This document shows positions 2,907 through 22,250 of a stretch of DNA of 64,000 nt, piece after piece. Both the position numbers and the translations under genes were made by a program. The first letter of the stretch is position 1; each line of letters opens with the position of its first letter. The notes under the pieces are model-generated. The model was not told the DNA's origin. It saw only the letters and a list, made by a program, of their open reading frames with translations, and searched no databases. This DNA is from Minisyncoccota bacterium (GTDB taxonomy: Bacteria > Patescibacteriota > Minisyncoccia > Phycocordibacterales > UBA2135): NCBI GenBank assembly GCA_040879685.1, contig JBBDJW010000012.1:14233-78232 (forward strand). Direction: 5' to 3'.

Positions 2907-3386
2907 ATGAAAATTTTAGGAATAGATCCAGGATATGAAAGGCTTGGTGTTGCGCTTATTGAAAAGACAGGGCAAAAAGAAAAACTTGTAAGCTCTTCTT
3001 GTTTTACCACCAACAAAAAGACCCCTTTTGCGAAACGCCTACTTCACATTGGAAAACATATTAAAGAAATATTGGAGAAAGAACATCCTAATTTCATTGC
3101 TGTTGAGACACTTCTTTTCAACACCAACAAAAAAACTGCGATGGCGGTAAGTGAGGTCCGCGGCGTCATACTCTATGAGGCAGCTTGTGCGGGAGTAGAG
3201 ATATGTGAATATACTCCTCCTGAGATAAAAATGGCGGTTACGGGCTATGGCCACTCGGAAAAAAAACAGGTGCAATTTATGGTTGGTAAAATCCTTTCTC
3301 TAAAAACAAGCCTTATGATTGATGACGAGTGTGACGCCATCGCGGTGGCACTTACTTGTGCCGCGCACCAAAGAGGTCCTTTCTAA
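2907..3386 (+). CDS. ruvC: Crossover junction endodeoxyribonuclease RuvC
   Basis: MKILGIDPGYERLGVALIE is the RuvC N-terminal catalytic motif. I chose the ATG at 2907 over the ORF-track start at 2871. Confidence 0.85.
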   Translation: MKILGIDPGYERLGVALIEKTGQKEKLVSSSCFTTNKKTPFAKRLLHIGKHIKEILEKEHPNFIAVETLLFNTNKKTAMAVSEVRGVILYEAACAGVEICEYTPPEIKMAVTGYGHSEKKQVQFMVGKILSLKTSLMIDDECDAIAVALTCAAHQRGPF

Positions 3387-4792
3387 ATAATAAGACGAAC
3401 AAAGCGAGTTTTGCCAAGCTTAAGTGTGGCAGTTGCAGAGAAGGGTCTTGCAAGAGAGGTGATTCTTTCCCCATCAACATATATTCCTCCTGCACGAGCG
3501 AGGCGCTGCAACTCTGTTTTTGACGCAATAAGATTTTTTTCCTTGAGCCTCTCCACAATATCAAGAAGAGTGTCTCCTTTAGAAATTGAAATCTCAATAG
3601 GGGTCTCGGGGGTAATTTTTTTTTGGAAAACAGCAATAAAGTTTTCTTGTGCCCTCTCTGCCTCCTTCTCTCCATGATAAAGTGCCACAATTTCTCGTGC
3701 GAGCCGCATTTTTGTATCCCGCGGGTTCTTATTTTTGCCCATAAGACTTTTTTCAATCTCTTCAATCTCCTCATTAGGGGTGAAGGTACAGAGCTCAAAA
3801 TATTCAACCATGAGCTCATCGGGGATAGACATAACCTTTCCATACATATCTTCAGGAGCATCGGTGATTGCTATATAGTTATCCAGACTTTTACTCATTT
3901 TTTCTCTACCCCCCGTCCCCGTGAGAATCTCCATGGACATAACAGCTTGTGGTTCTTCGTTGTTTGCGTGCATTACATCTCTTCCTACAAGCATATTAAA
4001 TGTTTGGTCGGTTCCCCCTATCTCAAGATCACAACTTCCATAAATTTTATACAGTATATGGGAATCAATCCCTTGAAAGACGGGGTAGAGCATTTCACTC
4101 ATAGAGAGCTCACTCCCTTTTTTAATTCTCTCTTGAAACATATCACGTTGAATGAGCCGTCCATGGGTGATGTGTTTGAGGGTCCAAAGGAGATTCACTA
4201 CTGAAACACTCGTAATATTTTTTTTCTGGAGTGCCTTTTTCTGCATGCGCGACTCATCAAACGCGAGCGCTCTTCCTTCTATGGACTGAGGGTTTATGGG
4301 GACATCAATTGTCTCACTCCCTTTTTGTACGGTAAGGGTAATTTTATAATCCTTAGGGAGGGTGATGTCAAAGGGTGAGGTGAACCAATCCGAATTCCTA
4401 ATCCACGAAAAAACCTCTTCATCGGTGCGGAGAATTTTTTTAATCTGGTCTAAATATGTCTCCATGTTTTTTTCAACTTCCTCTTGATTAACTTCAGGGC
4501 GTGTTTTATCCTTTCCTGATGGATCTCCAATGCTCGCGGTGAAGTCGCCCACAAGAAAAACCACCTTGCACCCAAGGTCTTGAAGGGCACGCATTTTATG
4601 GAGTATTACCGCATGACCAAGGTGAATATCGGGGCGTGTGGGGTCAACGCCAAGCTTTATAATAATATCTTTGGTATATTCTCCTTGTGTTTTCTTAAGG
4701 AGTTTTTGCCGAAAGGCGTCGTCAGGGTCTATAAACTCAGAAACCCCACGTGAAAGGATTTCGTTTATTTTATTCTCGGAGATGGTTACCAT
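3383..4792 (-). CDS. tyrS: Tyrosyl-tRNA synthetase with an insertion domain and a C-terminal S4-like domain
   Basis: Class I HIGH motif (HLGH), KMSKS motif (EKMSKS), GDFTASIGDPSGKD and a YPVFQGID block typical of TyrRS. Start chosen at the internal Met (MVTISENK); the ORF track extends to 4816. Confidence 0.8.
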   Translation of the reverse strand: MVTISENKINEILSRGVSEFIDPDDAFRQKLLKKTQGEYTKDIIIKLGVDPTRPDIHLGHAVILHKMRALQDLGCKVVFLVGDFTASIGDPSGKDKTRPEVNQEEVEKNMETYLDQIKKILRTDEEVFSWIRNSDWFTSPFDITLPKDYKITLTVQKGSETIDVPINPQSIEGRALAFDESRMQKKALQKKNITSVSVVNLLWTLKHITHGRLIQRDMFQERIKKGSELSMSEMLYPVFQGIDSHILYKIYGSCDLEIGGTDQTFNMLVGRDVMHANNEEPQAVMSMEILTGTGGREKMSKSLDNYIAITDAPEDMYGKVMSIPDELMVEYFELCTFTPNEEIEEIEKSLMGKNKNPRDTKMRLAREIVALYHGEKEAERAQENFIAVFQKKITPETPIEISISKGDTLLDIVERLKEKNLIASKTELQRLARAGGIYVDGERITSLARPFSATATLKLGKTRFVRLII

Positions 4793-7697: not shown

Positions 7698-8801
7698 CTA
7701 GGAGTTGAGGGGCATAATAAGATAGATAAAGTTTTCATCATGAACTCCCTTAATGATCATGGGCTGTGTTTCGTTATTCATCTTTAAAACCAAGCTATCT
7801 TTTTTAAGTGCAGAGAGGCAGTCGTTAATATACCTATGATTAAAGTTTACATAAATACCCTCACCCGATATTGATGCAGAGAGTGTTGTTTTGTTCTCTC
7901 CAAGGTCGCTGTTGTGAGAACTTATCTCAAACACCTTTTTAACAGGCTCAATGGTGATGGTAATTTTATTAAACTTATCGGAAAAAAGATTAGTAACTTT
8001 TAGTGCGTCAATAAAATCCTCTTTTAAAACAACCGCCTCGGTGGTAAATTCTTTTGGTATAATTTGTTTATAATCAGGAAAAACACCATCAACGAGCCGT
8101 GATGTTATATAAGTAGTATCAACCTGTAATGATATTTGGTTTTTATCAAAATTTATAAAAAGTTCTCCACCTTTATTGCTTAAAACCTTGCTAATTTCAA
8201 TAATATTTTTAAAAGGAATTAGGAGGGAGAGGTTTTGTTTAATGTCTGATTTTAGGTCTATTTTTTTTTCAGCTAACCGAAATGAGTCTGTGGCAACAAA
8301 AATCAGTGTGTTTGCATTATTATAAATAAAAATACTTGAAATCTCTGGCTTAATGTCTGATGTGGCACTGCTGTAAGAAACAGAGTTTATTCCTAATAAA
8401 AAATCTTGTGTTGATATTTTTAAGCTGTCTTTATTGTTGATTTTAGGTAGTAAGGGAAAGTCTGTGTGTGGCTTTGTTTTTATGGTGGTTGTTGTGTTTT
8501 TTGTTGTGATTGATAGATTGTTGTTTTTAATAATTTTAAAATTTATAATAGTATCATGAATATTTGAGAGAAGGTTGGAAATAATGCCACAAGGAAGGGC
8601 AATTGAGCCTTCTTTTTTTGTTTTTATAGGAATGGTAATTTCAATCCCAACATCTAGGTTTGTTGACCTTATTTGTAGTGTGTCCCCCTTTGTGGTGATG
8701 AGAATAAAACCAAGGATATCCAAAGACAGGTTCTTTCCAACCATTCTTTCGGCGAGAGAAAGGGCTTCTTGTATTTTTTCTTTATTACATTCAAACTCCA
8801 T
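7698..8801 (-). CDS. dnaN: DNA polymerase III beta sliding clamp
   Basis: 367 aa with an N-terminal MEFxCxKExIxxAL pattern and three-domain clamp organisation. It is directly downstream of dnaA. Confidence 0.85.
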   Translation of the reverse strand: MEFECNKEKIQEALSLAERMVGKNLSLDILGFILITTKGDTLQIRSTNLDVGIEITIPIKTKKEGSIALPCGIISNLLSNIHDTIINFKIIKNNNLSITTKNTTTTIKTKPHTDFPLLPKINNKDSLKISTQDFLLGINSVSYSSATSDIKPEISSIFIYNNANTLIFVATDSFRLAEKKIDLKSDIKQNLSLLIPFKNIIEISKVLSNKGGELFINFDKNQISLQVDTTYITSRLVDGVFPDYKQIIPKEFTTEAVVLKEDFIDALKVTNLFSDKFNKITITIEPVKKVFEISSHNSDLGENKTTLSASISGEGIYVNFNHRYINDCLSALKKDSLVLKMNNETQPMIIKGVHDENFIYLIMPLNS

Positions 8802-9034
8802 AATAAATAAATAACTATTAACTATATGTTTATTATTATAAGGCTGTTGATAAGTGGATAAGTGTTTTAAATACTGTTTTTAAAGGAAGTTTTTAAAATA
8901 TTTTTTCTAACAAAATGTTTATAGTTGAGGAATAATATGTTAATAACTTTTTACTTTTAATAAAACACTACTTTTTACACATATTATTAACTGAAAAATA
9001 AAAAGTTATTAACACACTTGCTCACAGCCTTTAA
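8802..9034. promoter_or_regulatory. AT-rich intergenic region downstream of dnaA with DnaA-box-like sequences; putative part of oriC (DNA-unwinding side)
   Basis: AGTGGATAA (reverse complement TTATCCACT, 8/9 match to TTATCCACA) and TGTTGATAA are present in a very AT-rich 230-bp tract between dnaA and dnaN. Confidence 0.45.
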
Positions 9035-10387
9035 TTAAAACATTGAACGAATCTGTTCTAATTCTTGTGAAAGAGAGCTATTTAATTCAAGGTCCTTTCT
9101 CACTTTTTCACAAGAGTGAATAACGGTTGTGTGGTCTCGCCCTCCTAATTTTTGTCCAATTGTTGGATAAGAAACACCAAAGTCTTCTCTTAGTAAAAAC
9201 ATAATAATTTGTCTCGGCTTAACCACCTCCCTTCTTCTTGTTTTTTGATAAATAAAATCTTTTTCAAGATTATAAAAATCAGTAACTATTTCAACAACAT
9301 CTTCTGTTGAAATAGTTTTTCTATCTTTTTTGTTGTTTTTAACAATTGTGCGAATCTCATTTAGTGTTAAGTCTTTATTTTTTACCTGTGCTTGGCAGAT
9401 AATTGCATTCAAAATCCCCTCCAACTCACGAACATTTCCCTTAAGCGACGACGCAACAAAGGAAATGGTTTCGTCAGGGAGGCTAAAACCAAGACTTTTT
9501 ATTTTTGACCTCAAAATAGCGGCCCGAGACTCAAGGTCTGGTTCTGAAATATCAACAATCATTCCTTGGCTAAAACGAGATTTAAGGCGGTCTTCTATAT
9601 CAGGGATATAGTTACAATGTTTATCTGATGAAAAAATAATTTGCTTATTATTATCATAAAGAGAGTTAAAGAGATGAAATAACTCATCTTGTGTTCCTTG
9701 TTTTCCTCCAAAAAACTGAATATCGTCCATAATGAAGACGTCGTATTTCCTGTACTTTTCTTTAAAGATACTGATTTTATTTACCTGAACAGAGTTAATG
9801 TAGTCCAAAAAGAATTTTTCAGAGGTTGTATAAAAAACCTTTTTTGAAGCGTGTTGTTTTTTTATTTCATTTCCAACCGCCTGAATAAGATGTGTCTTTC
9901 CAAGCCCTGTTGGTCCATGAATAAAAAGTGGGTTATATACCACGCCAGGATTTTTAATAATTGCCCGCGCGGCGGCATTAGCAAGTTCATTAAAGGGGCC
10001 AACAACAAAGGTTTCAAAAGAGTAACGAGAATTTAAATTATCATCCTTGTTTATATAAAGATCTTTTAAAGGCAACTCTATTGTGTTTTGTGTGTGTGGA
10101 AGGATTGTCGTGACCCGCTCCCCCACTAACTCCTCTCCTTTTGGAGTAATGATATATTCAACCCCACGGACATTCTCTTTTACCTCTCGTAATGATTTTA
10201 AAATAAATTTATGATATTTATTATAAAGCCACTCTTTAACAAAGCTATTAGGGACACTTATAAAAACAATTCCCTCCTCTTCCTTCACAATATTGGTGTT
10301 TTTAAACCACGTGGTGAAATTTGCTTTTGATACACTAAGCTCTATTTCAGAGAGGGCGGTATTCCAAAGTTGTTTTGTGTCATTCAT
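9035..10387 (-). CDS. dnaA: Chromosomal replication initiator DnaA
   Basis: AAA+ Walker A GPTGLGKTHL and the C-terminal DnaA box-binding signature (IGQKLGGRDHTTVIHSCEKV); 450 aa. Confidence 0.9.
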   Translation of the reverse strand: MNDTKQLWNTALSEIELSVSKANFTTWFKNTNIVKEEEGIVFISVPNSFVKEWLYNKYHKFILKSLREVKENVRGVEYIITPKGEELVGERVTTILPHTQNTIELPLKDLYINKDDNLNSRYSFETFVVGPFNELANAAARAIIKNPGVVYNPLFIHGPTGLGKTHLIQAVGNEIKKQHASKKVFYTTSEKFFLDYINSVQVNKISIFKEKYRKYDVFIMDDIQFFGGKQGTQDELFHLFNSLYDNNKQIIFSSDKHCNYIPDIEDRLKSRFSQGMIVDISEPDLESRAAILRSKIKSLGFSLPDETISFVASSLKGNVRELEGILNAIICQAQVKNKDLTLNEIRTIVKNNKKDRKTISTEDVVEIVTDFYNLEKDFIYQKTRRREVVKPRQIIMFLLREDFGVSYPTIGQKLGGRDHTTVIHSCEKVRKDLELNSSLSQELEQIRSMF

Positions 10388-10586
10388 GACGCTTGATATG
10401 GTTGGGTTATGTAGTTTTTAATTATAGCCACAGAACTCTATGTAGCAAAGTTTTTAAAACGGGGAATAGTGTGTTGATAATTTGTGTATAACTATCCTAG
10501 TAAAAATGATATTACTTTTCATTTTACCACAAAAAAATTTTTTAATTTTTGACAAAAAAAGTATTTTAGTGTAAATTACTATAATT
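10388..10586. promoter_or_regulatory. dnaA/rpmH divergent control region with DnaA-box-like sites (TGTGTATAA = TTATACACA; TGTTGATAA) and a sigma70-like promoter for rpmH (TTGACA at 10551-10556 plus TATAAT at 10578-10583)
   Basis: The motifs can be read directly in the sequence. This is the classical oriC position between dnaA and the rpmH-rnpA operon. Confidence 0.5.
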
Positions 10587-10724
10587 ATGTCAAAAACATA
10601 CCAACCTAAAAAAGGAAAGAGAAAAAAGACCCACGGCTTTCTTGTCCGTCAAAGAACGTCTTCTGGGAAAAACACCATTCAAAAAAGAAGAAGAAAGGGG
10701 CGAGCAAAACTTACCACCGTCTAA
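10587..10724 (+). CDS. rpmH: 50S ribosomal protein L34
   Basis: Not in the ORF track (45 aa). It translates to [45 protein letters not shown], the L34 signature, and is followed by rnpA. Confidence 0.85.
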
Positions 10725-10773
10725 AACATCCAAAAAAATCGGATGTTTTAGGTTTTTGGTGTAAACTATAAAT

Positions 10774-11121
10774 ATGTTGCCAAAAAAACATAAGGCGACC
10801 AGCGCACAAGTAGAGGCCCTTAAAAAAATACCACAAAAAAAAACACATCATTCACCCTCCTTTACTCTTCTTGTTTATAAAAAAAGAGACCAAAAAGAAG
10901 TCAGTACAATAACTTTTATTATTTCAAAAAAAATAGCCACCAAGGCGGTTTTGCGAAATAAATTAAAAAGAAGAGGGTATTCGGTGGCACAAGAATTGTT
11001 TTTCCGCATTCAAACAGGCTTTACATTGGTATTTTATTTTAAAAAAGAAAGTGTTCATAAAACACATAAAGAATTTTTCCTTGAAATACAAAAACTTTTA
11101 AAAGAAGCGCATGTTTTATAA
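10774..11121 (+). CDS. rnpA: Ribonuclease P protein component
   Basis: Small basic protein with an RNR-like basic motif (LRNKLKRRGY) in the canonical rpmH-rnpA position. Confidence 0.75.
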   Translation: MLPKKHKATSAQVEALKKIPQKKTHHSPSFTLLVYKKRDQKEVSTITFIISKKIATKAVLRNKLKRRGYSVAQELFFRIQTGFTLVFYFKKESVHKTHKEFFLEIQKLLKEAHVL

Positions 11122-11359
11122 AAAAAACAGAACAATAAAAAGTCTTTTTGTTTTTTACAAAAAATTTCTCTCTCCAGACGAAGGGTTTTTCCGCTTTCTC
11201 TTTAACCAAACAACGCCGGTTTGTGTTTTCTATCCCACATGCTCAGAGTATGTAAAACAATCTATTGAGAAAAAAGGATTATTTCAAGGACTTTACACAG
11301 GACTAAAAAGGGTTCTTCGATGTCATCCTTGGCAGAAGAGGCACATTGATCTCCCTTAA
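11111..11359 (+). CDS. yidD: Membrane protein insertion efficiency factor YidD
   Basis: FYPTCSEY ... LRCHPW conserved YidD motifs. The gene overlaps the rnpA stop and precedes yidC. Confidence 0.8.
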   Translation: MFYKKNRTIKSLFVFYKKFLSPDEGFFRFLFNQTTPVCVFYPTCSEYVKQSIEKKGLFQGLYTGLKRVLRCHPWQKRHIDLP

Positions 11360-11368
11360 TATATTTCT

Positions 11369-12124
11369 ATGATTTCAAATATCTTTTTCACCACCCTTTA
11401 CCAACCAATCTACAATAGTTTGGTTTTTTTGGTGTCCTTTATGCCGTTTTATGACATTGGGCTTGCGGTTGTTCTCCTTACTTTAGTTGTTAAATTTATA
11501 CTCTTTCCTCTTGCACATAAAACAACAAAAACACAGGCCTCTATAAAAGTTTTTGAACCCGAAGTTCAAAGACTAAAAGAAGAATATAAAGAAGACAAGC
11601 AAGAGCAGTCGCGAAAGATTATGGAGTTGTATAAAAAACATGGAGTGAATCCATTTTCAGGTTGTCTCTTATTTCTTGTTCAATTCCCCATCATCATTGC
11701 TCTTTATTGGGTTTTTTGGAAGGGATTGGAGAATGGAATCAATACAGAACAACTTTATTCTTTTGTTATTGCTCCAGCAAAAATATCAACTGACTTTCTT
11801 GGCCTCATTGATATTTCCGGGAGAAGTTTTTTCCTTGCAGCACTTGCTGGCATTTCTCAGTATTTTCAAATTAAACTTTCAATGCCCTCCACTCTCCCCA
11901 AAAAAGAGGGAGCCCCCGCTTCTTTTAAAGAAGATTTTAAAAGAAGTTTCCAGCTTCAAATGCGCTACGGCCTTCCGGTTTTTGTTTTTTTTATTGCTTA
12001 CACCATATCGGCCGTCATAGCCCTCTATTGGCTAACCTCAAACCTTTTTTCTATTGTGCACGAACTTTTTGTAAAAAGAAAAGTTACACAACTTTTATCA
12101 AACAAAGAAGAAGGAGTGGTATAA
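11369..12124 (+). CDS. yidC: Membrane protein insertase YidC/Oxa1 family (short form)
   Basis: Multi-TM protein with the YidC C-terminal motif (YWLTSNLFSIV) in conserved operon context. Confidence 0.85.
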   Translation: MISNIFFTTLYQPIYNSLVFLVSFMPFYDIGLAVVLLTLVVKFILFPLAHKTTKTQASIKVFEPEVQRLKEEYKEDKQEQSRKIMELYKKHGVNPFSGCLLFLVQFPIIIALYWVFWKGLENGINTEQLYSFVIAPAKISTDFLGLIDISGRSFFLAALAGISQYFQIKLSMPSTLPKKEGAPASFKEDFKRSFQLQMRYGLPVFVFFIAYTISAVIALYWLTSNLFSIVHELFVKRKVTQLLSNKEEGVV

Positions 12125-12160
12125 TCTCTTACAATTTTTTAGCTTCTAGCTTGTTAGTTT

Positions 12161-12299
12161 ACTGAGAAACCTCACTTGGAAGCTAAGTTTCCAAGTGAGG
12201 TTTCTCAGTGATAAACGGAGACATATCACAAGTTACGAAAACGGATTTTTGGGATACCTACACCCCATAATGCGCTATAGCGTATTATGGGGTGTAGGT
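12161..12299. repeat. Two long near-perfect hairpins in tandem (12161-12209 with a 21-bp stem; 12254-12299 with a ~22-bp stem) downstream of yidC
   Basis: ACTGAGAAACCTCACTTGGAA...TTCCAAGTGAGGTTTCTCAGT and TACCTACACCCCATAATGCGCTA...TAGCGTATTATGGGGTGTAGGTA. Neither is followed by a clear T-run. Confidence 0.5.
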
Positions 12300-12652
12300 A
12301 CTTATGGTGATAAGCGATAAAATATTTCATACTATATATATTTCATACTATATACGTCCGAATACTTCCGAAGTGCAGAAGAGTTTGTAACTTTGTGAAA
12401 GTTACAAAATCCAACACGCCACCCGTCTGGCGTATTCAAAAAGGTCTAGGACAAAGCCCTTTTTTCTCATACTTGCCAACCATTAACCTACAATTTATAA
12501 CAAACCTTACTATTTTTGTTTTCTACCATCTTCTAAAACACCAATTTTAATAATTTATATACCTAATATTCTTAAAGTTACTCGGACCACTAATAAAACA
12601 TACCTTGGTTGCGTGAGGTCATTTTTTAGTGTAGGTTAGAAATACTTAAAGT

Positions 12653-13153
12653 GTGCGTATGGAGATGGACTTTATTAAAAAAACAATAGAATCTCTTTTA
12701 AACAAGCTTGCCGCTGATGCAAAACTTGAGAGCGCTTTTCCTCTTCATGGTGGTGAGATTACTAAGTTCTCTATTAAAACAAACGAACCCTTTCTTTTAA
12801 TAGGCAGGGAAGGAAAAACATTGATGGCGATGAATCACCTTGTAAAGAAAATGTTTGAAAACGAAATAATCAACAAGGGATATAAACATATTAACTTTAT
12901 TATTGATGTCAACGACTATCAAGAAAAAAGAATTGAGGAAATAAAAAACAAAGCAAACATTATTGCTGAACGGGCTCGTTTTTTTAAAAACAACGTAGAA
13001 ATGTCGCCAATGAATCCTTATGAGCGGATGATTGCACATTCTATTTTTACCAACACCCCTGATATAGAAACAGAATCTGTTGGTAGAGGGAGAGAGCGGC
13101 GGGTTGTGGTAAAGTACATAGATACAACCTCTTCACCAGAAACGGTGTTGTAA
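12653..13153 (+). CDS. jag: Jag/KhpB-like RNA-binding protein (KH plus R3H domains)
   Basis: C-terminal R3H motif (NPYERMIAHSIF ... GRGRERRVVVKY) in the canonical position after yidC. Confidence 0.75.
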   Translation: MRMEMDFIKKTIESLLNKLAADAKLESAFPLHGGEITKFSIKTNEPFLLIGREGKTLMAMNHLVKKMFENEIINKGYKHINFIIDVNDYQEKRIEEIKNKANIIAERARFFKNNVEMSPMNPYERMIAHSIFTNTPDIETESVGRGRERRVVVKYIDTTSSPETVL

Positions 13154-13201: not shown

Positions 13202-14446
13202 CTATTCCAACTTCAGTCGCCATAGGGTACCGTCTTTTTTATTTTGAAACAACAAAAAGCGTTCCTCCACATCAAGCTCTAGATTAATTACATCAAAAGA
13301 ATTGTTTAATGACTCTTGTGTTACTTGGGAAACAGAACCTCTTTCTACATCAAGTTGCCATATCTCATCACTAAAGGAGACTACCCCCCTATACCAATCA
13401 TCAGGATATAATGCCTTCTCTGGCGCTTGCGGCACCGCACAAAATGCCCTCTGAGGGCTTACCCTGCTCCACACACACTTCTCCGGTAGTGTGGCAAGGG
13501 GGAAAACTAGACTGTTTCCGCTCTCTCTATTATAGGAGATGATTCTAGAGAGGGTTTGCCCACGCATCTCTCCATAGAGGATGTTTCGCCCATCAAAAGA
13601 GGGTTGTGTGGTAAGCCCGGGAATGTTGTTTAAAAGAGGCACGATTCGTTCATTTGATAGGGTGAGAAGAATGCTCTGCCCCAAAACACCATTTGATGGT
13701 TTTGTGGTAAGAATAATTTGATTTTCTGTAGGCCAACCAACCAACCACTCTTTAAATGGGTGAGCAAAAACCTGCTCCTTGTCTCCGTTCTTTATATTTA
13801 AAATTGTACCAATCACAATATCACCAAAAGATCTAAGAGAGAACACCTTATCTCGCTCTGGTGAAAGAGTAAGAGCCTCTATATTCTCTTCCAAAAATTC
13901 TCCCTCCAAGCTTCCCACACCACTCTCCCCCCCCACAATGTTTCCCATAAATGTTTTTATAACTTCGCCGTCTAAATATTGGACGAGAAGTCTCTTCTCG
14001 TCATCACTCCACAACACTCTCTTTAGCGCCAGAAGGGTAGTGTTGGTAAGACGAACCTTTTCTAAGGTTTCTGGGTTTACCTCAAAAATATTGCCTGTTG
14101 TTTGTTCAACATACCTCACAGTCAAATGTTCCTTCTCGTCTTCACCAATGCGGTGAAACGATGCCCCCACCACCGGTGTACTTGAAAGCTGGAGCAGAGC
14201 ATTTCCCTCTCCTGCCTGCCCCGCAAGGGGTCCATCTTCTAACCCGTCTCCGTCTTGAGAGGGATCGCTTTGTGGAGGTCTTCGCACAGGCTCATCTGCG
14301 CCACCTCCTCCAAATGGAATAAAGTCGCGCAAGACTTCAACGGGCGTTTTGTCCTCTCGCGGGGCGATAATAAAGGCGGCAACAAAAATCCCTATTGCTA
14401 TGAGTGTTAAAATACCTATTATAATAAATGAAATTTTACGGGGCAT
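13202..14446 (-). CDS. Membrane-anchored extracytoplasmic protein; N-terminal TM, Pro/Gly-rich linker, possible beta-propeller body
   Basis: TM helix FIIIGILTLIAIGIFVAAFII followed by a low-complexity linker. No catalytic motifs were recognised. It is the first gene of the minus-strand secretion cluster. Confidence 0.45.
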   Translation of the reverse strand: MPRKISFIIIGILTLIAIGIFVAAFIIAPREDKTPVEVLRDFIPFGGGGADEPVRRPPQSDPSQDGDGLEDGPLAGQAGEGNALLQLSSTPVVGASFHRIGEDEKEHLTVRYVEQTTGNIFEVNPETLEKVRLTNTTLLALKRVLWSDDEKRLLVQYLDGEVIKTFMGNIVGGESGVGSLEGEFLEENIEALTLSPERDKVFSLRSFGDIVIGTILNIKNGDKEQVFAHPFKEWLVGWPTENQIILTTKPSNGVLGQSILLTLSNERIVPLLNNIPGLTTQPSFDGRNILYGEMRGQTLSRIISYNRESGNSLVFPLATLPEKCVWSRVSPQRAFCAVPQAPEKALYPDDWYRGVVSFSDEIWQLDVERGSVSQVTQESLNNSFDVINLELDVEERFLLFQNKKDGTLWRLKLE

Positions 14447-14452
14447 ATGAAT

Positions 14453-15190
14453 TTAATATAATTTGTCTATCTCTGCTTTATCAGCACACGTCGAAGCCCT
14501 ATCTGTGTCTTCCGCGGCTGCGATGCATTTATCAAGATCATTTCCAAAACAAAATAAAGAACCTGACCCTGTTTTTTTATAACAAAAATTAATATCAAGA
14601 ACACCTTGGTCTGTGATATTTTTACAAGTAAAGGTGGGCTCGTTGGTTGCGTTGTTTGCAACGTCTGCCACTCCTAGACATTCTTGCGCTGTTTGGTAAC
14701 AGTTTTGGTTAGTGGGGGTTTCTCCAATAGTGATTAAACAATATTTTTTATCAGAAGGAATATCAATGCTCCCAACATCATCAGGTGTCTCTATCGCGGG
14801 GACAGTTATTTTAAACACATCAATATTAAACTTAAGCAATTCGGGGTTAATTGTTTGCAAGATAAGCACCGATGAGCTTATAAGCACAAGGCCGATAACC
14901 GCGGACCATATTCGTTTTAGTGCGGCACTTTTATCGGTAATCGCTTCACTTAACATATATTGCATACCGCCCACAACAACCATAACAACCGCTAAAACAA
15001 TAGTTACACCAATAAGAAGTTTAAAAAGCTGTGTCAAATAACCCCCTAACCCAACCTCCCTTAGATCAATCTCATCTAGTGGAGCAAGGGGGGTATAGTC
15101 AATTGCGAAAACAGGAAGTGCAACGAAAAAGAAAAGAGCACATGAGAGTGAAAAAAAGGAAACAAAGTGTTTTTTTATAAAGGCAATCAT
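14453..15190 (-). CDS. Pilin-like membrane protein of the T4SS-like cluster (signal/TM, second TM, Cys-rich exposed C-terminal domain)
   Basis: Two hydrophobic helices in VirB2/TrbC-like topology, and at least 8 Cys in the C-terminal about 90 aa. Confidence 0.4.
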   Translation of the reverse strand: MIAFIKKHFVSFFSLSCALFFFVALPVFAIDYTPLAPLDEIDLREVGLGGYLTQLFKLLIGVTIVLAVVMVVVGGMQYMLSEAITDKSAALKRIWSAVIGLVLISSSVLILQTINPELLKFNIDVFKITVPAIETPDDVGSIDIPSDKKYCLITIGETPTNQNCYQTAQECLGVADVANNATNEPTFTCKNITDQGVLDINFCYKKTGSGSLFCFGNDLDKCIAAAEDTDRASTCADKAEIDKLY

Positions 15191-15191
15191 A

Positions 15192-16226
15192 TTAATTTCC
15201 TAAGCGAGAGGCCTCTCCAAATGTTATAGATAAAAAACGACGCACTTCTTGAAGGAAGTTATTTCTATTTGTAATTTTAAGTCCAATACGAGAACGGCCA
15301 GCCTCCTCCGGTTTTCTAAGGGTGATTTCTTGCCCTAAAGCACCTGTAATTTCTTTTCCATTGAGCAACCATGTAAATACTAAATTACTACCCACATCTT
15401 CTTGTGAAAAAAAATATGGTTCAGCGTGGAGTGTGATTTCATCAGGGAAAAAAGAATATTCTCCGCCAAGTGCTCTTTCAGAAAGGACTCCTCGTAAAGG
15501 GTGTTTTTCATAAAAGAAAATTTCCGGCTCTTGAGGAGAAAGAGTTAGAGAGGCTTCTCCACGGAGAGACCCTCCAAAAGAAGAGATGGCAACAGAGAGA
15601 TCCATTTCTTGAAACAGCGAAGGACCTGTTATGGTGAGCGTTTGTTTTCCAAACCCAGAAAGGCTTCCCAACACTCTTCCGTTACGAGACCATGTATACA
15701 CGAGCCCTTGTGGATTTAAAAACGAAACACCGTCCACACTAAACCACGGTAGTGCAGTAACAACAATTTTATTATCTGTTGTTAAAAGTGCCTTTCCTTT
15801 ATAAAAGGCAGGAGTATAGGTGTTGCTCTCCCATAAAAGAGAGACAAGTGTTGGAGTAAAACGAATTTCTTCGTTTAGTACAACACCTTCCGGCGTTGTC
15901 GCAGTAACTGAAACGCGGGTTTCTTCACCGACCTCACCCACTTTTATAGTGATTTTCTTTACCCCAACTCCTGATGTAAAAAGAGTGCCATTAACGAACC
16001 AGCGAAGCGTTGCTCTGTTAAGGTCCACACTAAAGCTCTCCACATTTATAAACACCTCTTCTTGAGGGGCAGGTACTTGTGGGAAGAATTTTATAATAAA
16101 GTTTTGTTGAGGAATTTGGGCGAAAAGAGAGTGAGATGAAAAAAGAAAACCAAAAAAGAAACCACAAAGCAATGACAGGGTTGCTGAAAGGATGCGTTTA
16201 TTTCTTTTACTATAGAGAAGGGGCAT
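15192..16226 (-). CDS. Secreted or membrane-anchored protein of the T4SS-like cluster
   Basis: N-terminal signal/TM (LSLLCGFFFGFLFSSHSLFA) with a beta-rich body and no recognised enzymatic motif. Confidence 0.45.
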   Translation of the reverse strand: MPLLYSKRNKRILSATLSLLCGFFFGFLFSSHSLFAQIPQQNFIIKFFPQVPAPQEEVFINVESFSVDLNRATLRWFVNGTLFTSGVGVKKITIKVGEVGEETRVSVTATTPEGVVLNEEIRFTPTLVSLLWESNTYTPAFYKGKALLTTDNKIVVTALPWFSVDGVSFLNPQGLVYTWSRNGRVLGSLSGFGKQTLTITGPSLFQEMDLSVAISSFGGSLRGEASLTLSPQEPEIFFYEKHPLRGVLSERALGGEYSFFPDEITLHAEPYFFSQEDVGSNLVFTWLLNGKEITGALGQEITLRKPEEAGRSRIGLKITNRNNFLQEVRRFLSITFGEASRLGN

Positions 16227-16243
16227 AATTACAGCTTATCACA

Positions 16244-18061
16244 CTACTCATTTGTTTGTTTGTGTTCCTGGCGCGTTTTTTTAAGTGATAAAATCTCGGA
16301 GGGGTCGGAGGTAATAATTTGGTCTTCCGTATACGAGGCAATAATTTTTATTGCAACATGTTTAAGTCCGGCAAAAAAGATTCCCTCTCCCACATCGGAT
16401 TCAAGAAGAAGATATTTTTCTTCATCTGTTAAATTGAAGGTTTTCTGAACTGTATCAACCGTTGTGGGAGATTGTTTAAGAAGAAGCTGTATTGAAGAGT
16501 TGTTTATAATAGGTTCGCCATATTCTGATTTCAGGAAGTCACCAACATCCTGTGTGATCGTGGCGAGGCCAAGATAGTATTTTCGTCCTCGCTTAGCAAG
16601 GCTATAGAGGAACGAAGCAGTGTCTTTTTGTTTCATCATCCACCATGCCTCATCAATTACCAAAAGCCTTTTCTTGAGTTCTTGGCGGATTGTGTTCCAG
16701 ATAAAGTGCATTACAATATACATTGCCACCGGCTTCAACTCGTCCTCCATATCACGAACAGAGAAGACCACAAATCGTTTATTAATATCAACATTGGTTG
16801 GTCGGTTTAAAAAGCCCTCCCAAGTACCTTTTGTGTATTTAATAAGCCTTGCGGAGAGTGATCCTGCTCCATCCATTCCCGCAAGAACCAGTTCAAAATC
16901 AGAAAGAAGAGGTGCTTCAATTTTTGAAAAATCAGACTCGGGGGTAATGTCTTTAAGTGCGTATGTTTCCGTAATAGCGCGGTCAATAACAGAGTCTTCC
17001 TCAGGACTAAGCCCTCCAAGCATAATTCGGAAAAGTCCAACAAGACTTACAATATTTGAACGGAGAACATCAGCAGGAGACTCATCTTCACGTACAGGAG
17101 GGAGGTCAAAAGGGTTAATATGATGCTCCGACGTGAGGGAGACATTGAAATATCTCCCCCCCGTTGCTTCGGCCAAGTATTCATATTCTTTTTCAGGGTC
17201 AATTACCAAGACATCTATGTCAAACATCAAGGAGCGAAGAATTTCTAATTTTGTTGCGTACGACTTACCAGACCCTGATGTTGCAAACATCAGAGAGTTA
17301 TAGTTGGGCATTGAAAAACGGTCAAAGAGCACCAAGCTTGTGTTGTGTCTGTTTACACCGTAAAGAATTCCTCTATCTGAAGTGAGATCAAAGGAGACAA
17401 AAGGGAAAAAACTTGAAAGTGGTGAGGAGTTTAGTTTTGAATGAATCGAGAGTGAATCATGCCCCACCGGCAACACACTGGTGAACCCTTCTTCTTGTTG
17501 AAAGAGGGCGGGACGCAGGTAGATAAGCTTTGTCTCAAGAAGTGATTTAATTTCTTGTTCAAGCTTATCAAGTGCTCGCTCATCATCTGCATAAATAGTG
17601 ATATAGAGCCCAACGTTGAAAAGTTTTTCCTGCGCTTGTTGGAGTTTATCGCGAAGCGACTCAAGATCTTGATACGCGATATCAAGCACAGGGTCTCTCA
17701 CCAACCCTTTTTCTTCGCGGATAGAAATTTGACTTTGCACTTCAGCAACTTTTTTTTGAAAATCCCGTAGCGCGCGAGAAGTGTCTATTGGGTGGATGAA
17801 CAGCGAGATATCAAAGACCTTGTCTAAGTTAATTATAGGAGAGAGCCAGTTATCATTAAGATACCGTGGGTATGAAATTGCAAAGAAGGTTCGGGCAGTT
17901 TTATCTCCCAAATGCAGTTCCTTGGGGCTTATTTTAAGGGCGGCCGGAGCAATAATATCTCTCAACTCTAATACCCCCGCCTCATAGATGTCTTGCGGTA
18001 AAATCGGAGAAATCTCTGCCGTATCTTTTTTTCTTCCTAGTAATGTGTCTAATAATCCCAT
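16244..18061 (-). CDS. VirB4/TrbE/PrgJ-type conjugal-transfer ATPase, C-terminal ATPase part; in frame with the upstream ORF across a single TAA
   Basis: Walker A ATSGSGKSYATK and Walker B RLLVIDEAWWMM, with VirB4-like C-terminal organisation. Confidence 0.75.
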   Translation of the reverse strand: MGLLDTLLGRKKDTAEISPILPQDIYEAGVLELRDIIAPAALKISPKELHLGDKTARTFFAISYPRYLNDNWLSPIINLDKVFDISLFIHPIDTSRALRDFQKKVAEVQSQISIREEKGLVRDPVLDIAYQDLESLRDKLQQAQEKLFNVGLYITIYADDERALDKLEQEIKSLLETKLIYLRPALFQQEEGFTSVLPVGHDSLSIHSKLNSSPLSSFFPFVSFDLTSDRGILYGVNRHNTSLVLFDRFSMPNYNSLMFATSGSGKSYATKLEILRSLMFDIDVLVIDPEKEYEYLAEATGGRYFNVSLTSEHHINPFDLPPVREDESPADVLRSNIVSLVGLFRIMLGGLSPEEDSVIDRAITETYALKDITPESDFSKIEAPLLSDFELVLAGMDGAGSLSARLIKYTKGTWEGFLNRPTNVDINKRFVVFSVRDMEDELKPVAMYIVMHFIWNTIRQELKKRLLVIDEAWWMMKQKDTASFLYSLAKRGRKYYLGLATITQDVGDFLKSEYGEPIINNSSIQLLLKQSPTTVDTVQKTFNLTDEEKYLLLESDVGEGIFFAGLKHVAIKIIASYTEDQIITSDPSEILSLKKTRQEHKQTNE

Positions 18062-18067
18062 AATTTT

Positions 18068-18760
18068 TTATTGCTCTTTACCCCTTTCTCGTTCCATAGG
18101 AATTGGCTTCTCAAGCTCTCCTGGGTTAAAAATACGGTAATAAAGCTCAACCAACTCTTCTGTATGAAGTGGGGCTACACGAAGCCCTGTACTTGCAAGC
18201 CCCTGCTCAACCACCCCTGCCCGTTGTTCAAGTTGCGTTCGTGCCTCCTCAAATCGTTCTTGTTCATTTTTAACATCCACCTTCTTTTTTGCTGGTAAGA
18301 ATTTAGTAAAAAAACCTCCTTGGGTATTAAGTGTTGCCCGTTGATAGGGGACAACAATAAAAAAAGTTTTTTTCATAATATTTACGCTTTCGGTAAATTT
18401 TTTCACAAAATTTATATATTCAGTTACCTGTATTTTCATCAAATCAGAGGATTGATCCTTTCTCCTCTCCTCTAAAAGGGCAATGTAGGGTCGTATATCC
18501 AACTCTCGTGATTGAGTAAAAATTTGTAACGAGAAATCTAAGGAGTTCAGAAAGCTTTGAAACTGTTGCAGAATAGCTCGCTGTTCCTCTTCTGATTTCA
18601 GCGCAAGATTGTGTGATGAGGTCATCAAAACCATTCTTAAAGAGCCGTCCTTGAGAATGACGACGCCATTTTTTATTTCTTTTATGGGAACGAAATTTTG
18701 TGCTGGTTCAGCCATAGGTTGGTGAATAGTTAGTATCTTAGTGGGTAGGTTTGTTCGCAA
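18068..18760 (-). CDS. VirB4-family N-terminal domain, separated from the ATPase part only by an in-frame TAA
   Basis: The pattern ILKDGSLRMVLMTSSHNLALKSEEEQ resembles the VirB4/TrbE N-domain. The stop at 18068-18070 is followed by two codons and then the ATG of the downstream ORF in the same frame. Confidence 0.6.
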   Translation of the reverse strand: MRTNLPTKILTIHQPMAEPAQNFVPIKEIKNGVVILKDGSLRMVLMTSSHNLALKSEEEQRAILQQFQSFLNSLDFSLQIFTQSRELDIRPYIALLEERRKDQSSDLMKIQVTEYINFVKKFTESVNIMKKTFFIVVPYQRATLNTQGGFFTKFLPAKKKVDVKNEQERFEEARTQLEQRAGVVEQGLASTGLRVAPLHTEELVELYYRIFNPGELEKPIPMERERGKEQ

Positions 18761-18781: not shown

Positions 18782-19249
18782 TTACGAGGAGTGCCTTGCT
18801 TCATTGCTTTGTGCGTAGATACTGTCATGGACATCAAGACTCCATGAAATATCTTTAAGCTTGCTATCGGAGAGTCTGGGAACAAAAAGCGAAGAAGCCA
18901 CCTGCTTTTCTTGTTTAGGGGTAATTTTTTTATCTTGCCTCTTCCAGATATAAAGTTTTCCAGTCATGAGAAAACGAAAGAAGGACTCTAAAAGAGCGAT
19001 AAAGGGGCGATTATTTACTTTATAAAAAGCAAGTGCAAGTGCGAGCGCTCCAACGGGAGCGATAACCAAAATCGCAATAAAGAGGGGTAAAAGAGAATAA
19101 GCAAGAAATGCCATTGCCGCCCCACCGGCAAGATAAATAAATTGCTTGAAGGTGAAGGGACCAAAAATTTTATTTTCTACTTCTATAAATTGTGGTACTT
19201 GAAAACGCATACTGTTTATGTGGCTTGTGGTAGATAACTTTTTGCACAA
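18782..19249 (-). CDS. PrgI-family (VirB3-like) small membrane protein
   Basis: VPQFIEVENKIFGPFTFKQFIYLAGGAAMAFLAY matches the PrgI-family N-terminal signature and is followed by two TM helices. The gene lies directly upstream of VirB4, as in Gram-positive T4SS. Confidence 0.55.
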   Translation of the reverse strand: MCKKLSTTSHINSMRFQVPQFIEVENKIFGPFTFKQFIYLAGGAAMAFLAYSLLPLFIAILVIAPVGALALALAFYKVNNRPFIALLESFFRFLMTGKLYIWKRQDKKITPKQEKQVASSLFVPRLSDSKLKDISWSLDVHDSIYAQSNEARHSS

Positions 19250-19422: not shown

Positions 19423-20382
19423 CTATTCAATGGGTTCTCTGTATGGATCTGCCGCGTACTCTTTCTTATCAGGCTTCTTTTCTTGAGATACTTGTCCCTC
19501 CTCATCTGCGTGCTCTGAGGGTGCCTTCTTTGGTTGTGGTGTTGGTGCACGAGGAGTCTCTTCTTTTTGAGTTTGTGGAGGTGCTTCTTCTTTGCTCTCC
19601 TGCGGGGTATCTGTTTGTTTTTCTTCTCTTGCCGATGGAGCTTGTAACCCTCGTCCTTCTTTTTTTATAGGAAGGTTTAGAGGAGGTTTTTCTTTGTTTA
19701 TTTTCACGAGGACTTTCTTTTGGGACTCTATGTCCTGGACCTCTTTTTCTTCTTCTCCCACATTGCTTTGTATTTTTATATCACGAAGCCTGTCGGGTAT
19801 GATGACATTCTCTTCCCCCTCAAACGAGCCCTCCTCTCCTCGCGGGTCCAAGGGCTCGTTCTTTTTGGGAGTGACAACAAGCGGTTCGGGCGCTTTGTTT
19901 TCAAGGCCGGATTTTTCTTTTTCCAGTTCGGGCTCTACGCGCTCTTCCATCCCTTTTTTTATTTCATGTTTAACGGGAATTTTTCTTTTTGGGAGAGGAA
20001 CTTGATAGGCATCTTCACTCTCCCTTTCAGAGGGAAGCGGCTGGTTTTCCCTCCTTTCTTTTTTTAGGGAGTGAATCTCTTTCAATGATTCACGAATAGG
20101 GTGAAAAACTTCTTTATTAACATCTTCCGCAATTGCACGCGCCTTTTCCCTCTCAACGCCTATTCGCTTGGCAAGATTACTAATAAATTCATTGGGGTGT
20201 GTAAGGCCAAGTATTACAAAAGTTGTTTCATCCACTAATCCACCCAAGGCATCTACATGAAGATTGTGTCTTTTTCCTATTTTTTCAAGCGCATCAAATA
20301 CCTCTGTTGAAGCAGCAGCAGTTTGTATGTCTTGAGGTAGTTTTTTTATAAATTCTTTTATTGTTGCAGAGTTTTTGTCCAT
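19423..20382 (-). CDS. Hypothetical protein with a Glu/Pro/Lys-rich low-complexity C-terminal half
   Basis: The long ORF has good codon structure but no recognisable motif. The dense antisense ORFs in the track are low-complexity artefacts. Confidence 0.45.
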   Translation of the reverse strand: MDKNSATIKEFIKKLPQDIQTAAASTEVFDALEKIGKRHNLHVDALGGLVDETTFVILGLTHPNEFISNLAKRIGVEREKARAIAEDVNKEVFHPIRESLKEIHSLKKERRENQPLPSERESEDAYQVPLPKRKIPVKHEIKKGMEERVEPELEKEKSGLENKAPEPLVVTPKKNEPLDPRGEEGSFEGEENVIIPDRLRDIKIQSNVGEEEKEVQDIESQKKVLVKINKEKPPLNLPIKKEGRGLQAPSAREEKQTDTPQESKEEAPPQTQKEETPRAPTPQPKKAPSEHADEEGQVSQEKKPDKKEYAADPYREPIE

Positions 20383-20399: not shown

Positions 20400-22250
20400 T
20401 TACTCAGTATCCTTATCGTCTTTTTTATCATCATCACTTTCGTCTTTCTTTTTCTCTGTCGGCTTTGATTTAATTGTTTTCGCCTCTTGCCGTAATGTTT
20501 TTATTTCCCCCCTAATTTTTTCTTTTTTCTTGTCAAGTTCCTCTTTTTTCTTGTCAAGTTCCTCCTCTAGGTTTTCTAGGCGACCCAACTCCTCTAGTTC
20601 AGCGACAGTTACTTTCTCACCTCTTTCTTCTTTACTATGAAGGTCACTACTATAGCTTGATAGTTTTTCGTAGTTTGATTTGATTCCATTCTTTAATTCC
20701 CTTTCTTCTTTTTCTAATTCTTTTTCTTCTGACTCCTTTATCTTAAGTATAAGTTGGGTTGCCGCAACCGTTCTATTTCGGAAGATGTCCCCCAAAGGAC
20801 TTCGTGGAGAGAGGACATTTTTAATATAATCCTCATCCTTATCTCCTCCGATAGATTTCGCAAAGGCAACACGTTCCTCAATCTTAGTGTCCAATTCCTT
20901 CTCATACCCTCCCTTTCCTAGTGCCTTTCCCATACCAGTGATTGATTTGCCGGCGACCTTTGCACTACGAGCATCATAGCTGGCAGTTGCCAAGCTACGA
21001 GTTCCCTGAAGAAGCGTTCCGGCAACACGACCTTTGATCGCCGCTTTTTGAAACCTTTCACTGCTTGCAAGTATGCTGGCTCCTCGTCCGAGGAGTTGCC
21101 GCCCGCCAATTCCCACTGCTCCGAATGTAAGAGCGCCGGTCGTCGCCTTTGCTGTTTTCATCACCGTCTCTGCTCCCATTAAACCAAATTGTTTTGCGAG
21201 TATATACGAGCCATAGATAAGAGCGATGACGATAGCAAACTGAAAGAGCACCGCAAAGAATGAAACTCCACCGACATCACCGGCAAACCAGCCGGCAACA
21301 GCACCCGAGAAACTCAAATCTTCTTCACCAACGCCCGGGAGCAGGCTTCCTGTGCCTATAATCATCACCGTCAATGTTATAAGAAGAATATAAGCGGGCG
21401 CATAAAAAGAGTATTTTAAGAGATGGCTCCACCACAGATTATAATACTTCTCTGTCCCGGGGAGAATTCTGGCGACAAATGCAAGAGGCGAGAGCACCAT
21501 TAAAAACATCAACATTACCGAACGGACAATAAACATTATCGCCGCAGTTCCAAAAGAAAAGACGGCGATGAGCGTAGCTATCGTTCCTACAATGTAAACG
21601 GTGAAAAGCCTACTCGGGTTCAAAACAAATGCCCCTGCAGTACCCCCGAGACCCTCAACACCTTCATTTACAATAGTTTGCAGACGAAGGCCATTCGCAA
21701 GACTTGCTGACAACCCCCCCTCGGCGGTTATTTGCTCATAAAACGCAACGGCAAAAATATTTGACGCATCAATTACAAGTTTTGTGAAGAAAAGGCTGAA
21801 GTTAACAAGAAGTGCAACGACAACGAGCGAGGTAAGAATTTTCTTTGTTTCAAAGCCTCCCGCCTGAAGAATGGTCATTATGGAAATATAAACGAGGATA
21901 AAAACAAAAACAACATTAGAAAGATCGCGCACAGCTCCCCACGCGACATTAACTGCCCCGACAGAGAGGCTGTTAATGTCTAATGAAAAAGTAATGCTTG
22001 TATCAAGAAGCCACGCACTCGCCGTGAGGATAAGGCCGGAAAGGTTGAATAGTCCTTCCGCAAGAAGATTTGGTATTAAAAGCGCAAACGCCTTAAGACC
22101 CCCTACAATATCAAGAGGGTTGGCAAACACAAAAGAGTCCGGAAGAGGGGCAAGAAAAAGGAAGAGTATAAATATCACAAACCACGAAGTGTGTCTTGGT
22201 GAGAACTTCTTTGGCAGTCTATATGCAATGTTTTGTAGTAGTCGCTTCAT
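20400..22250 (-). CDS. Polytopic membrane protein, VirB6/TrbL-like, with a C-terminal charged coiled-coil tail
   Basis: At least 8 predicted TM helices across about 450 aa, then a KELEKEE...KKDESDDDKKDD tail. Its size and position are typical of a VirB6 analogue. Confidence 0.5.
   Translation of the reverse strand: MKRLLQNIAYRLPKKFSPRHTSWFVIFILFLFLAPLPDSFVFANPLDIVGGLKAFALLIPNLLAEGLFNLSGLILTASAWLLDTSITFSLDINSLSVGAVNVAWGAVRDLSNVVFVFILVYISIMTILQAGGFETKKILTSLVVVALLVNFSLFFTKLVIDASNIFAVAFYEQITAEGGLSASLANGLRLQTIVNEGVEGLGGTAGAFVLNPSRLFTVYIVGTIATLIAVFSFGTAAIMFIVRSVMLMFLMVLSPLAFVARILPGTEKYYNLWWSHLLKYSFYAPAYILLITLTVMIIGTGSLLPGVGEEDLSFSGAVAGWFAGDVGGVSFFAVLFQFAIVIALIYGSYILAKQFGLMGAETVMKTAKATTGALTFGAVGIGGRQLLGRGASILASSERFQKAAIKGRVAGTLLQGTRSLATASYDARSAKVAGKSITGMGKALGKGGYEKELDTKIEERVAFAKSIGGDKDEDYIKNVLSPRSPLGDIFRNRTVAATQLILKIKESEEKELEKEERELKNGIKSNYEKLSSYSSDLHSKEERGEKVTVAELEELGRLENLEEELDKKKEELDKKKEKIRGEIKTLRQEAKTIKSKPTEKKKDESDDDKKDDKDTE

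Follow-up and report, generated by a model that had tools for sequence, protein, structure and literature searches.

A TrsD-like gene and a VirB4-type ATPase gene as a predicted two-gene VirB4 in the chromosomal type IV secretion system of a Minisyncoccota bacterium

We analyzed a 64,000-nucleotide stretch of contig JBBDJW010000012.1 (assembly GCA_040879685.1, positions 14,233 to 78,232; hereafter the window) from a Minisyncoccota bacterium, in which the VirB4-type ATPase gene of a type IV secretion system (T4SS) appeared at first reading to be interrupted by a single in-frame TAA. Comparison with related loci showed that the two open reading frames (ORFs) on either side of this stop are conserved as two cistrons across the clade and jointly encode one complete VirB4. 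They are almost certainly a pair of ordinary genes, translated separately, in the chromosomal T4SS of a Paceibacteria (Patescibacteria) genome, one for a TrsD-like front half and the other for the rest of VirB4. Quinonero-Coronel et al. 2025 (PMC12102498) had already reported TrsD homologues beside virB4 in most Patescibacteria, and this two-gene arrangement is how the genes are normally organized in the lineage. What looks like a premature stop in a core ATPase of the secretion system is thus a normal gene boundary; the locus is not a pseudogene, and the ORFs are not to be merged.

Two genes covering one VirB4

Both ORFs lie on the minus strand. The upstream one terminates at a TAA stop (18070-18068), which is followed by AAA ATT (18067-18062) and then by the ATG (18061-18059) of the ATPase ORF, which encodes 605 amino acid residues and runs to position 16244. 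The two ORFs share a common reading frame, with two sense codons between the stop and the ATG. A preliminary description made from the window alone had reported the in-frame TAA, the ATG at 18061, and the 6-nt gap, and all of these were borne out. It had also placed the N-terminal ORF at 18068-18760 and given a total of about 838 residues; here the TAA end stood, but the start did not. The maximal upstream ORF begins at TTG 18760 and encodes 230 residues, whereas the homologues and an identical NCBI protein of 215 residues (P0001) start at the ATG equivalent to 18715. As judged from these proteins, ATG 18715 is the conserved start of the TrsD-like gene, and the 215-residue and 605-residue products have a combined length of 820 residues.

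The 605-residue protein displayed the features of the VirB4/TraC/TrbE family, namely, a P-loop domain with Walker A (TSGSGKS) and Walker B (LLVIDEAW) motifs and homology to the VirB4 C-terminal domain, and it is co-encoded with VirB3- and VirB6-type inner-membrane components. Its Pfam matches were P-loop_TraG (99 bits), AAA_10, and DUF87. The protein matched the crystallized VirB4 C-terminal domain (PDB 4AG5) with an E value of 1.2e-40 and R388 TrwK with an E value of 4.6e-10, its Walker A region (residue 254) being aligned with TrwK residue 445. Against the NCBIfam profile conju_CD1110, it scored 377 bits, which passes the cut-off of 325, over positions 185-733 of 752. The complete N-terminal domain was not found on this polypeptide, since its matches start at position 185 of 752 in conju_CD1110, 293 of 894 in VirB4_plasma, and 259 of 792 in TIGR00929; it also covered the final ~75 positions of two profiles for the N-terminal domain, TraC_F_IV and CagE_TrbE_VirB. 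According to the profile coordinates, the absent segment is supplied by the upstream gene, whose product covered positions 2-124 of conju_CD1110, 104-235 of VirB4_plasma, and 14-173 of TraC_F_IV.

P0001, which is 100% identical to the product of the upstream gene, is named 'TraC family protein' and comes from a metagenome-assembled genome of Candidatus Paceibacterota; a match to PF26593 'TraC-like' is precomputed for this entry and for all 120 listed homologues. Two traits of the TrsD family were found in the upstream product: it is a stand-alone protein of ~200-230 residues encoded between VirB3-like and VirB4-like ATPase genes, and it is homologous to the VirB4 N-terminus by profiles, by alignment with fused proteins, and by fold. 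Searches of the PDB by sequence, using either the single sequence or a 42-sequence profile, gave only a chance match to a designed fibre protein. By contrast, when an AlphaFold2 model of the protein (mean pLDDT 77, with a disordered tail at residues 203-215) was used for a fold search of the PDB, the top 14 ranks were all R388 TrwK/VirB4 chains, with probabilities of 0.99-1.00 and query TM-scores of 0.45-0.51, and the next matches were noise. The link to TrwK within the PDB was therefore visible by fold search only.

Fused VirB4 proteins allowed the two products to be placed on a single chain. A tblastn search of plasmids with the TrsD-like protein recovered both fused and split relatives. In a fused 866-residue protein of a Clostridium sporogenes plasmid, residues 58-234 corresponded to residues 1-204 of the TrsD-like protein and residues 253-842 to residues 11-562 of the ATPase, leaving 21 unaligned residues at the junction opposite 18 in the fused protein; a fused 858-residue protein of Myxococcus pYRE showed the same alignment behaviour. 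Alignment of both pieces to VirB4 profiles and fused proteins had been proposed as a check in the preliminary description, and it places the two predicted proteins end to end on fused VirB4 with nothing missing. The split order, with PrgI followed by an N-terminal piece of ~320 residues and a DUF87 ATPase of ~640-660 residues, was found on plasmids of Geobacillus, Bacillus thuringiensis, and the actinobacterium Miltoncostaea, and a fused gene was found in Rubrobacter.

Two rare fused forms also occur inside the window's own family. P0194 (L102:544-2937) has 797 residues, lies downstream of PrgI in the same oriC neighbourhood, and still carries, at the junction, the Met of the old start codon. 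P0266 (L103:3001-5697; also L104 and L105) has 898 residues with a P/A-rich linker; its presence on five contigs, which come from three or more samples, rules out an artefact of assembly. In both proteins the N-terminal part precedes the C-terminal part, and this retention of the same order supports the view that the two halves are one functional unit. Weak matches to the TrsD-like protein (21-23% identity over 96% of its length) were also observed at the start of 526-residue hypothetical proteins encoded on haloarchaeal plasmids (Haloplanus, L099, and others), each gene being followed by another large ORF. The haloarchaeal arrangement is possibly a different split of an archaeal VirB4.

Junctions in relatives and competing explanations

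Among the 90% clusters, at least 7,836 homologues of the TrsD-like protein were found. The best 120 were all stand-alone proteins of 207-245 residues with PF26593, down to ~60% identity, and its closest relatives (85%, 75%, and 70% identity) all have the piece in stand-alone form. An exhaustive search of 50% cluster representatives gave 2,149 matches, and 148 of the best 150 were stand-alone. Many TrsD-like homologues carry long, variable C-terminal tails, with total lengths of up to ~440 residues; two of them (at L012 and L013) have ~110-150 extra residues that are Q/N/P-rich.

To describe the junction itself, the stop codon of the TrsD-like gene and the start codon of the ATPase gene were located in 13 loci from species-representative genomes and 80 loci from metagenomes. 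All 83 informative junctions had a stop codon and none was fused; the comparison of orthologous loci called for in the preliminary description thus gave two ORFs throughout. Both pieces were intact in the relatives, with identities of 39-70% for the TrsD-like protein and 53-80% for the ATPase, and the order of the two genes was kept, with the genes adjacent, in 83 of 85 informative loci. Among 82 tallied junctions, the TrsD-like gene ended with TAA in 64, TAG in 14, and TGA in 4. The distance from stop to ATG in these 82 relatives ranged from -26 to +599 nt with a median of 6 nt (≤15 nt in 61), the commonest form was TAAtATG, and stop and start overlapped in four loci (e.g. -14 and -26). As for the frame relation, 20 junctions were in frame, 35 were at +1, and 27 were at +2 (chi-square p=0.13). 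Because the in-frame share is no greater than expected by chance, the in-frame arrangement is not favoured, and the shared frame in the window is a one-in-three coincidence. Two of the in-frame relatives (L001 and L007) have further in-frame stops within the spacer.

In five relatives, the spacer between trsD and virB4 holds a whole inserted gene (Table 1), and small genes seem to have landed repeatedly at this intergenic site. A palindromic repeat, GTCATTCCCGCGAAAGCGGGAATCCAG, was observed together with its inverse in the spacers of two unrelated metagenome loci, L045 (~3131-3730) and L090; it looks like a small mobile repeat element.

The N-terminus of the ATPase carries a motif, M-[GSA]-[LI]-[FL]-D-F-L-K-K-K-K, that is kept in 85 related loci and occupies the first 11 codons (18029-18061) in the window. 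On the strength of this conservation, the motif marks an old, genuine start codon. It may be a docking peptide or merely an A-rich start region. The N-terminus of the Geobacillus ATPase homologue is MFKFKKEKRE. In one locus (L055:3138-4825), tblastn gave HSPs for the ATPase in frames 3 and 2, so that the gene is divided between two frames, which suggests a frameshift error or a true pseudogene.

The leader before the ATPase ATG, AATAAAAAATT, is A/T-rich, as are the typical leaders of the window. Of 44 genes in the window, ~7 had a Shine-Dalgarno (SD)-like motif at -15 to -4, a proportion suggesting that initiation in the source genome is for the most part SD-independent. Since so few genes have such a motif, the earlier objection that the 6-nt gap leaves no room for a ribosome-binding site (RBS) is moot. 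After termination at the nearby stop, ribosomes may start at the downstream ATG by translational coupling, which would favour an output of approximately 1:1; the clustering of spacers at 1-8 nt fits such termination-reinitiation coupling, by which the halves would be kept near 1:1. Alternatively, the ATG may be reached by SD-independent initiation on the A/T-rich leader, as apparently in most genes of this genome. The TrsD-like protein and the ATPase would then associate non-covalently and rebuild the VirB4 protomer. In the R388 system, the N-terminal domain of TrwK/VirB4 contacts VirB3 at the membrane. By analogy with R388, and in keeping with the fold match, the TrsD-like half may take a membrane- and VirB3-proximal position and dock to the PrgI/VirB3-like protein. 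This offers a hypothesis for the function of TrsD, namely, that TrsD is a detached half of the VirB4 N-terminal domain, the one nearest to VirB3.

Other explanations of the stop codon start from the local picture. A lone TAA, two pieces that share a frame, and a combined length usual for VirB4 are what a recent nonsense mutation, pseudogenization, or a sequencing or assembly error in a once-single virB4 would leave, and both the nonsense mutation and the assembly error had been put forward in the preliminary description. The probability of such a lesion or error is negligible: the stand-alone TrsD-like piece is found in the closest relatives and in thousands of more distant ones, a stop is present at every one of the 83 informative junctions, both pieces are intact and conserved, and the ATPase start motif shared by 85 loci points to an old start codon. 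Programmed or leaky readthrough of the TAA, giving a fused full-length VirB4 alone or beside the separate products, had been a further suggestion and would suit the two sense codons that separate the in-frame ORFs of the window; natural fusions exist as well, and in P0194, with the old Met at its junction, the fused protein is evidently functional. However, under one third of the junctions (20 of 82) are in frame, extra in-frame stops lie in the spacers of L001 and L007, and over most of the clade readthrough is precluded by overlapping ORFs (-14, -26) and by whole genes lying in the spacer, so that we regard this explanation as very unlikely. No readthrough-promoting structure was seen, and no search aimed at one was made. 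A minor amount of fused VirB4 made by low-level readthrough in this genome, beside the two subunits, is equally improbable; such a state would be one mutation away from the P0194-type fusions, and nothing supports selection for it. Taken together, the conserved stand-alone N-terminal piece, the variable frame and spacer, the inserted genes, and the conserved ATPase start thus rule out conserved readthrough as well as a recent mutation or an error of assembly. An alternative genetic code was also considered and rejected: TAA, TAG, and TGA all end the TrsD-like gene in relatives, and rpmH, rnpA, yidD, yidC, and dnaA/dnaN are intact and of normal length with all three stops.

The TrsD-like protein could also be an independent accessory factor, related by ancestry to the VirB4 N-terminus but not joining the ATPase as one part of a split subunit. 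The long variable tails of many homologues and two loci without an ATPase gene downstream (L005 and L011) speak for this possibility, to which we assign little probability: what the ATPase lacks is exactly the segment that the TrsD-like protein supplies, the two genes remain neighbours in this order in 83 of the 85 informative loci, and the fused forms have the same order. For two subunits of a split VirB4, an option that the preliminary description had listed among several, the stand-alone conservation and the collinearity with fused VirB4 provide support. That description had held that homologues with the two domains always in separate genes, each with its own RBS, would speak against an anomaly in this genome; the domains are in separate genes at all 83 informative junctions, P0194 and P0266 being rare fusions, and the RBS part of the argument lapses for the reason given above. 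Judged in this way, the anomaly disappears.

Several observations weigh against the split-VirB4 interpretation. The TrsD-like protein scored 31.1 bits (E=1.9e-7) with the TrsD model NF041427 of NCBIfam, far under the curated cut-off of 200 for this model of a narrow subfamily built on Firmicutes proteins, and an hhalign comparison of its family with the single pSK41 TrsD sequence was weak, with a probability of 3%. Because of this sub-cut-off score and weak hhalign result, we call the protein TrsD-like (Pfam "TraC-like") and do not place it in the narrow NCBIfam subfamily. In L005 (36-710) and L011 (3986-4612), the TrsD-like gene does not precede an ATPase gene and is followed by unrelated genes on the opposite strand; the TrsD-like protein may be able to act alone, or these contigs may be chimeric or truly rearranged.

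The secretion gene cluster beside oriC

The T4SS genes begin at 13202 and adjoin a classic oriC neighbourhood (7698-13153), in which dnaN, dnaA, rpmH, rnpA, yidD, yidC, and a Jag/R3H gene were found (Table 1). The PrgI/VirB3-like gene lies directly upstream of the TrsD-like gene, and VirB6/TrbL-like and VirB2-like pilin genes lie in the same cluster. The VirB6-like protein has a long E/K-rich, coiled-coil-like C-terminal tail. By their positions, a 344-residue protein encoded directly downstream of the ATPase and a 319-residue protein encoded between the VirB6-like and PrgI-like genes probably belong to the T4SS.

Table 1 Features of the window and genes inserted into the trsD-virB4 spacer of related loci
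Feature	Position	Strand	Evidence or remark
dnaN	7698-8801	-	oriC neighbourhood
dnaA	9035-10387	-	oriC neighbourhood
rpmH	10587-10724	+	oriC neighbourhood
rnpA	10774-11121		oriC neighbourhood
yidD	11111-11359		oriC neighbourhood
yidC	11369-12124		oriC neighbourhood
Jag/R3H	12653-13153		oriC neighbourhood
VirB2-like T4SS pilin gene	14453..15190	-	PF18895 T4SS_pilin, E=2.7e-5, just under gathering score
344-aa secreted/membrane protein	15192..16226	-	weak BiPBP_C match only; same gene string as ATPase
VirB4-type ATPase gene, 605 aa	16244..18061	-	predicted second half of N-terminal domain and P-loop ATPase domain; profile and PDB matches
Junction: TAA (18070-18068) and 6-nt spacer AAAATT (18067-18062)	18062..18070	-	sequence
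TrsD-like gene, 215 aa, PF26593 'TraC-like'	18068..18715	-	predicted first half of VirB4 N-terminal domain; P0001 100% identical; profile and fold matches
PrgI/VirB3-like membrane protein gene	18782..19249	-	PF12666 PrgI, E=4.8e-10
319-aa E/K/P-rich protein	19423..20382	-	no Pfam match
VirB6/TrbL-like polytopic membrane protein gene	20400..22250	-	PF04610 TrbL, E=7e-5, under gathering score
23S_rRNA_IVP four-helix-bundle protein	L024:1815-2186		in spacer
23S_rRNA_IVP four-helix-bundle protein	L033:1297-1674		in spacer
23S_rRNA_IVP four-helix-bundle protein	L073:3184-3528		in spacer
23S_rRNA_IVP four-helix-bundle protein	L080:3181-3552		in spacer
GIY-YIG nuclease	L045:3294-3578		in spacer

Comparison with known VirB4 systems

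Single-chain members of the VirB4/TraC/TrbE family, including R388 TrwK (PDB 7O41/8RTD), the CD1110 family, and Thermoanaerobacter VirB4 (4AG5), are covered over the whole protein by the two window products together, and the TrsD-like protein shares the fold of the TrwK N-terminal domain. Unlike in these proteins, the chain encoded in the window has a break midway through the N-terminal domain, at approximately position 185 of a VirB4 profile of ~750-800 residues.

The conjugative staphylococcal plasmid pSK41 (NC_005024) has trsC (135 residues, VirB3-like), trsD (227 residues), and trsE (672 residues, DUF87) in the same order as the window, with a spacer of 14 nt between the genes for the small protein and the ATPase, compared with 6 nt here. 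TrsE and the window ATPase are 25% identical over 590 residues (E=5e-37), and their matches to conju_CD1110 start at positions 183 and 185, respectively, which is the same break point. The N-termini are also alike, MIMAFLKKKK in TrsE and MGLLDTLLGRKKD in the window, with MGLFDFLKKKK as the clade consensus. By contrast, the TrsD-like protein resembles pSK41 TrsD only weakly (31 bits with the TrsD model; hhalign as above). The pSK41/pGO1 systems of Staphylococcus (MPF_FATA class), in which TrsD and TrsE also go by the names TraD and TraE, are plasmid-borne and conjugative, with a relaxase and a coupling protein, whereas the window system is chromosomal and located at oriC, and no relaxase was seen in its T4SS cluster.

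The closest counterpart is the chromosomal T4SS of Patescibacteria described in PMC12102498. In that study, TrsD was the most abundant T4SS component in Patescibacteria: the CONJscan TrsD profile gave 2,272 homologues, of which 1,664 are neighbours of virB4; the Patescibacteria VirB4 clade was nested within MPF_FATA, and the T4SS cluster of Paceibacteria was found near dnaA, dnaN, rnpA, and rpmH. Citing Guglielmini et al. 2014, its authors described a remote homology between TrsD and the N-terminal part of VirB4 and assigned TrsD no function; they also cited Wang et al. 2023 for the essentiality of TrsD in Southlakia epibionticum ML1. The window system belongs to the same clade, has the same gene set (PrgI/VirB3, TrsD-like, VirB4, VirB6, and VirB2-like pilin), and lies in the same position next to dnaA/dnaN/rpmH/rnpA/yidC, and we found no substantive difference between the two. 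The collinearity with fused VirB4 and the junction geometry presented here are not spelled out in PMC12102498. Our analysis therefore makes a modest addition to the literature, namely, that the TrsD-like protein and the protein annotated as "VirB4" correspond to one full VirB4, as shown by their collinearity with fused proteins, the break point shared with pSK41, and the rare re-fusions.

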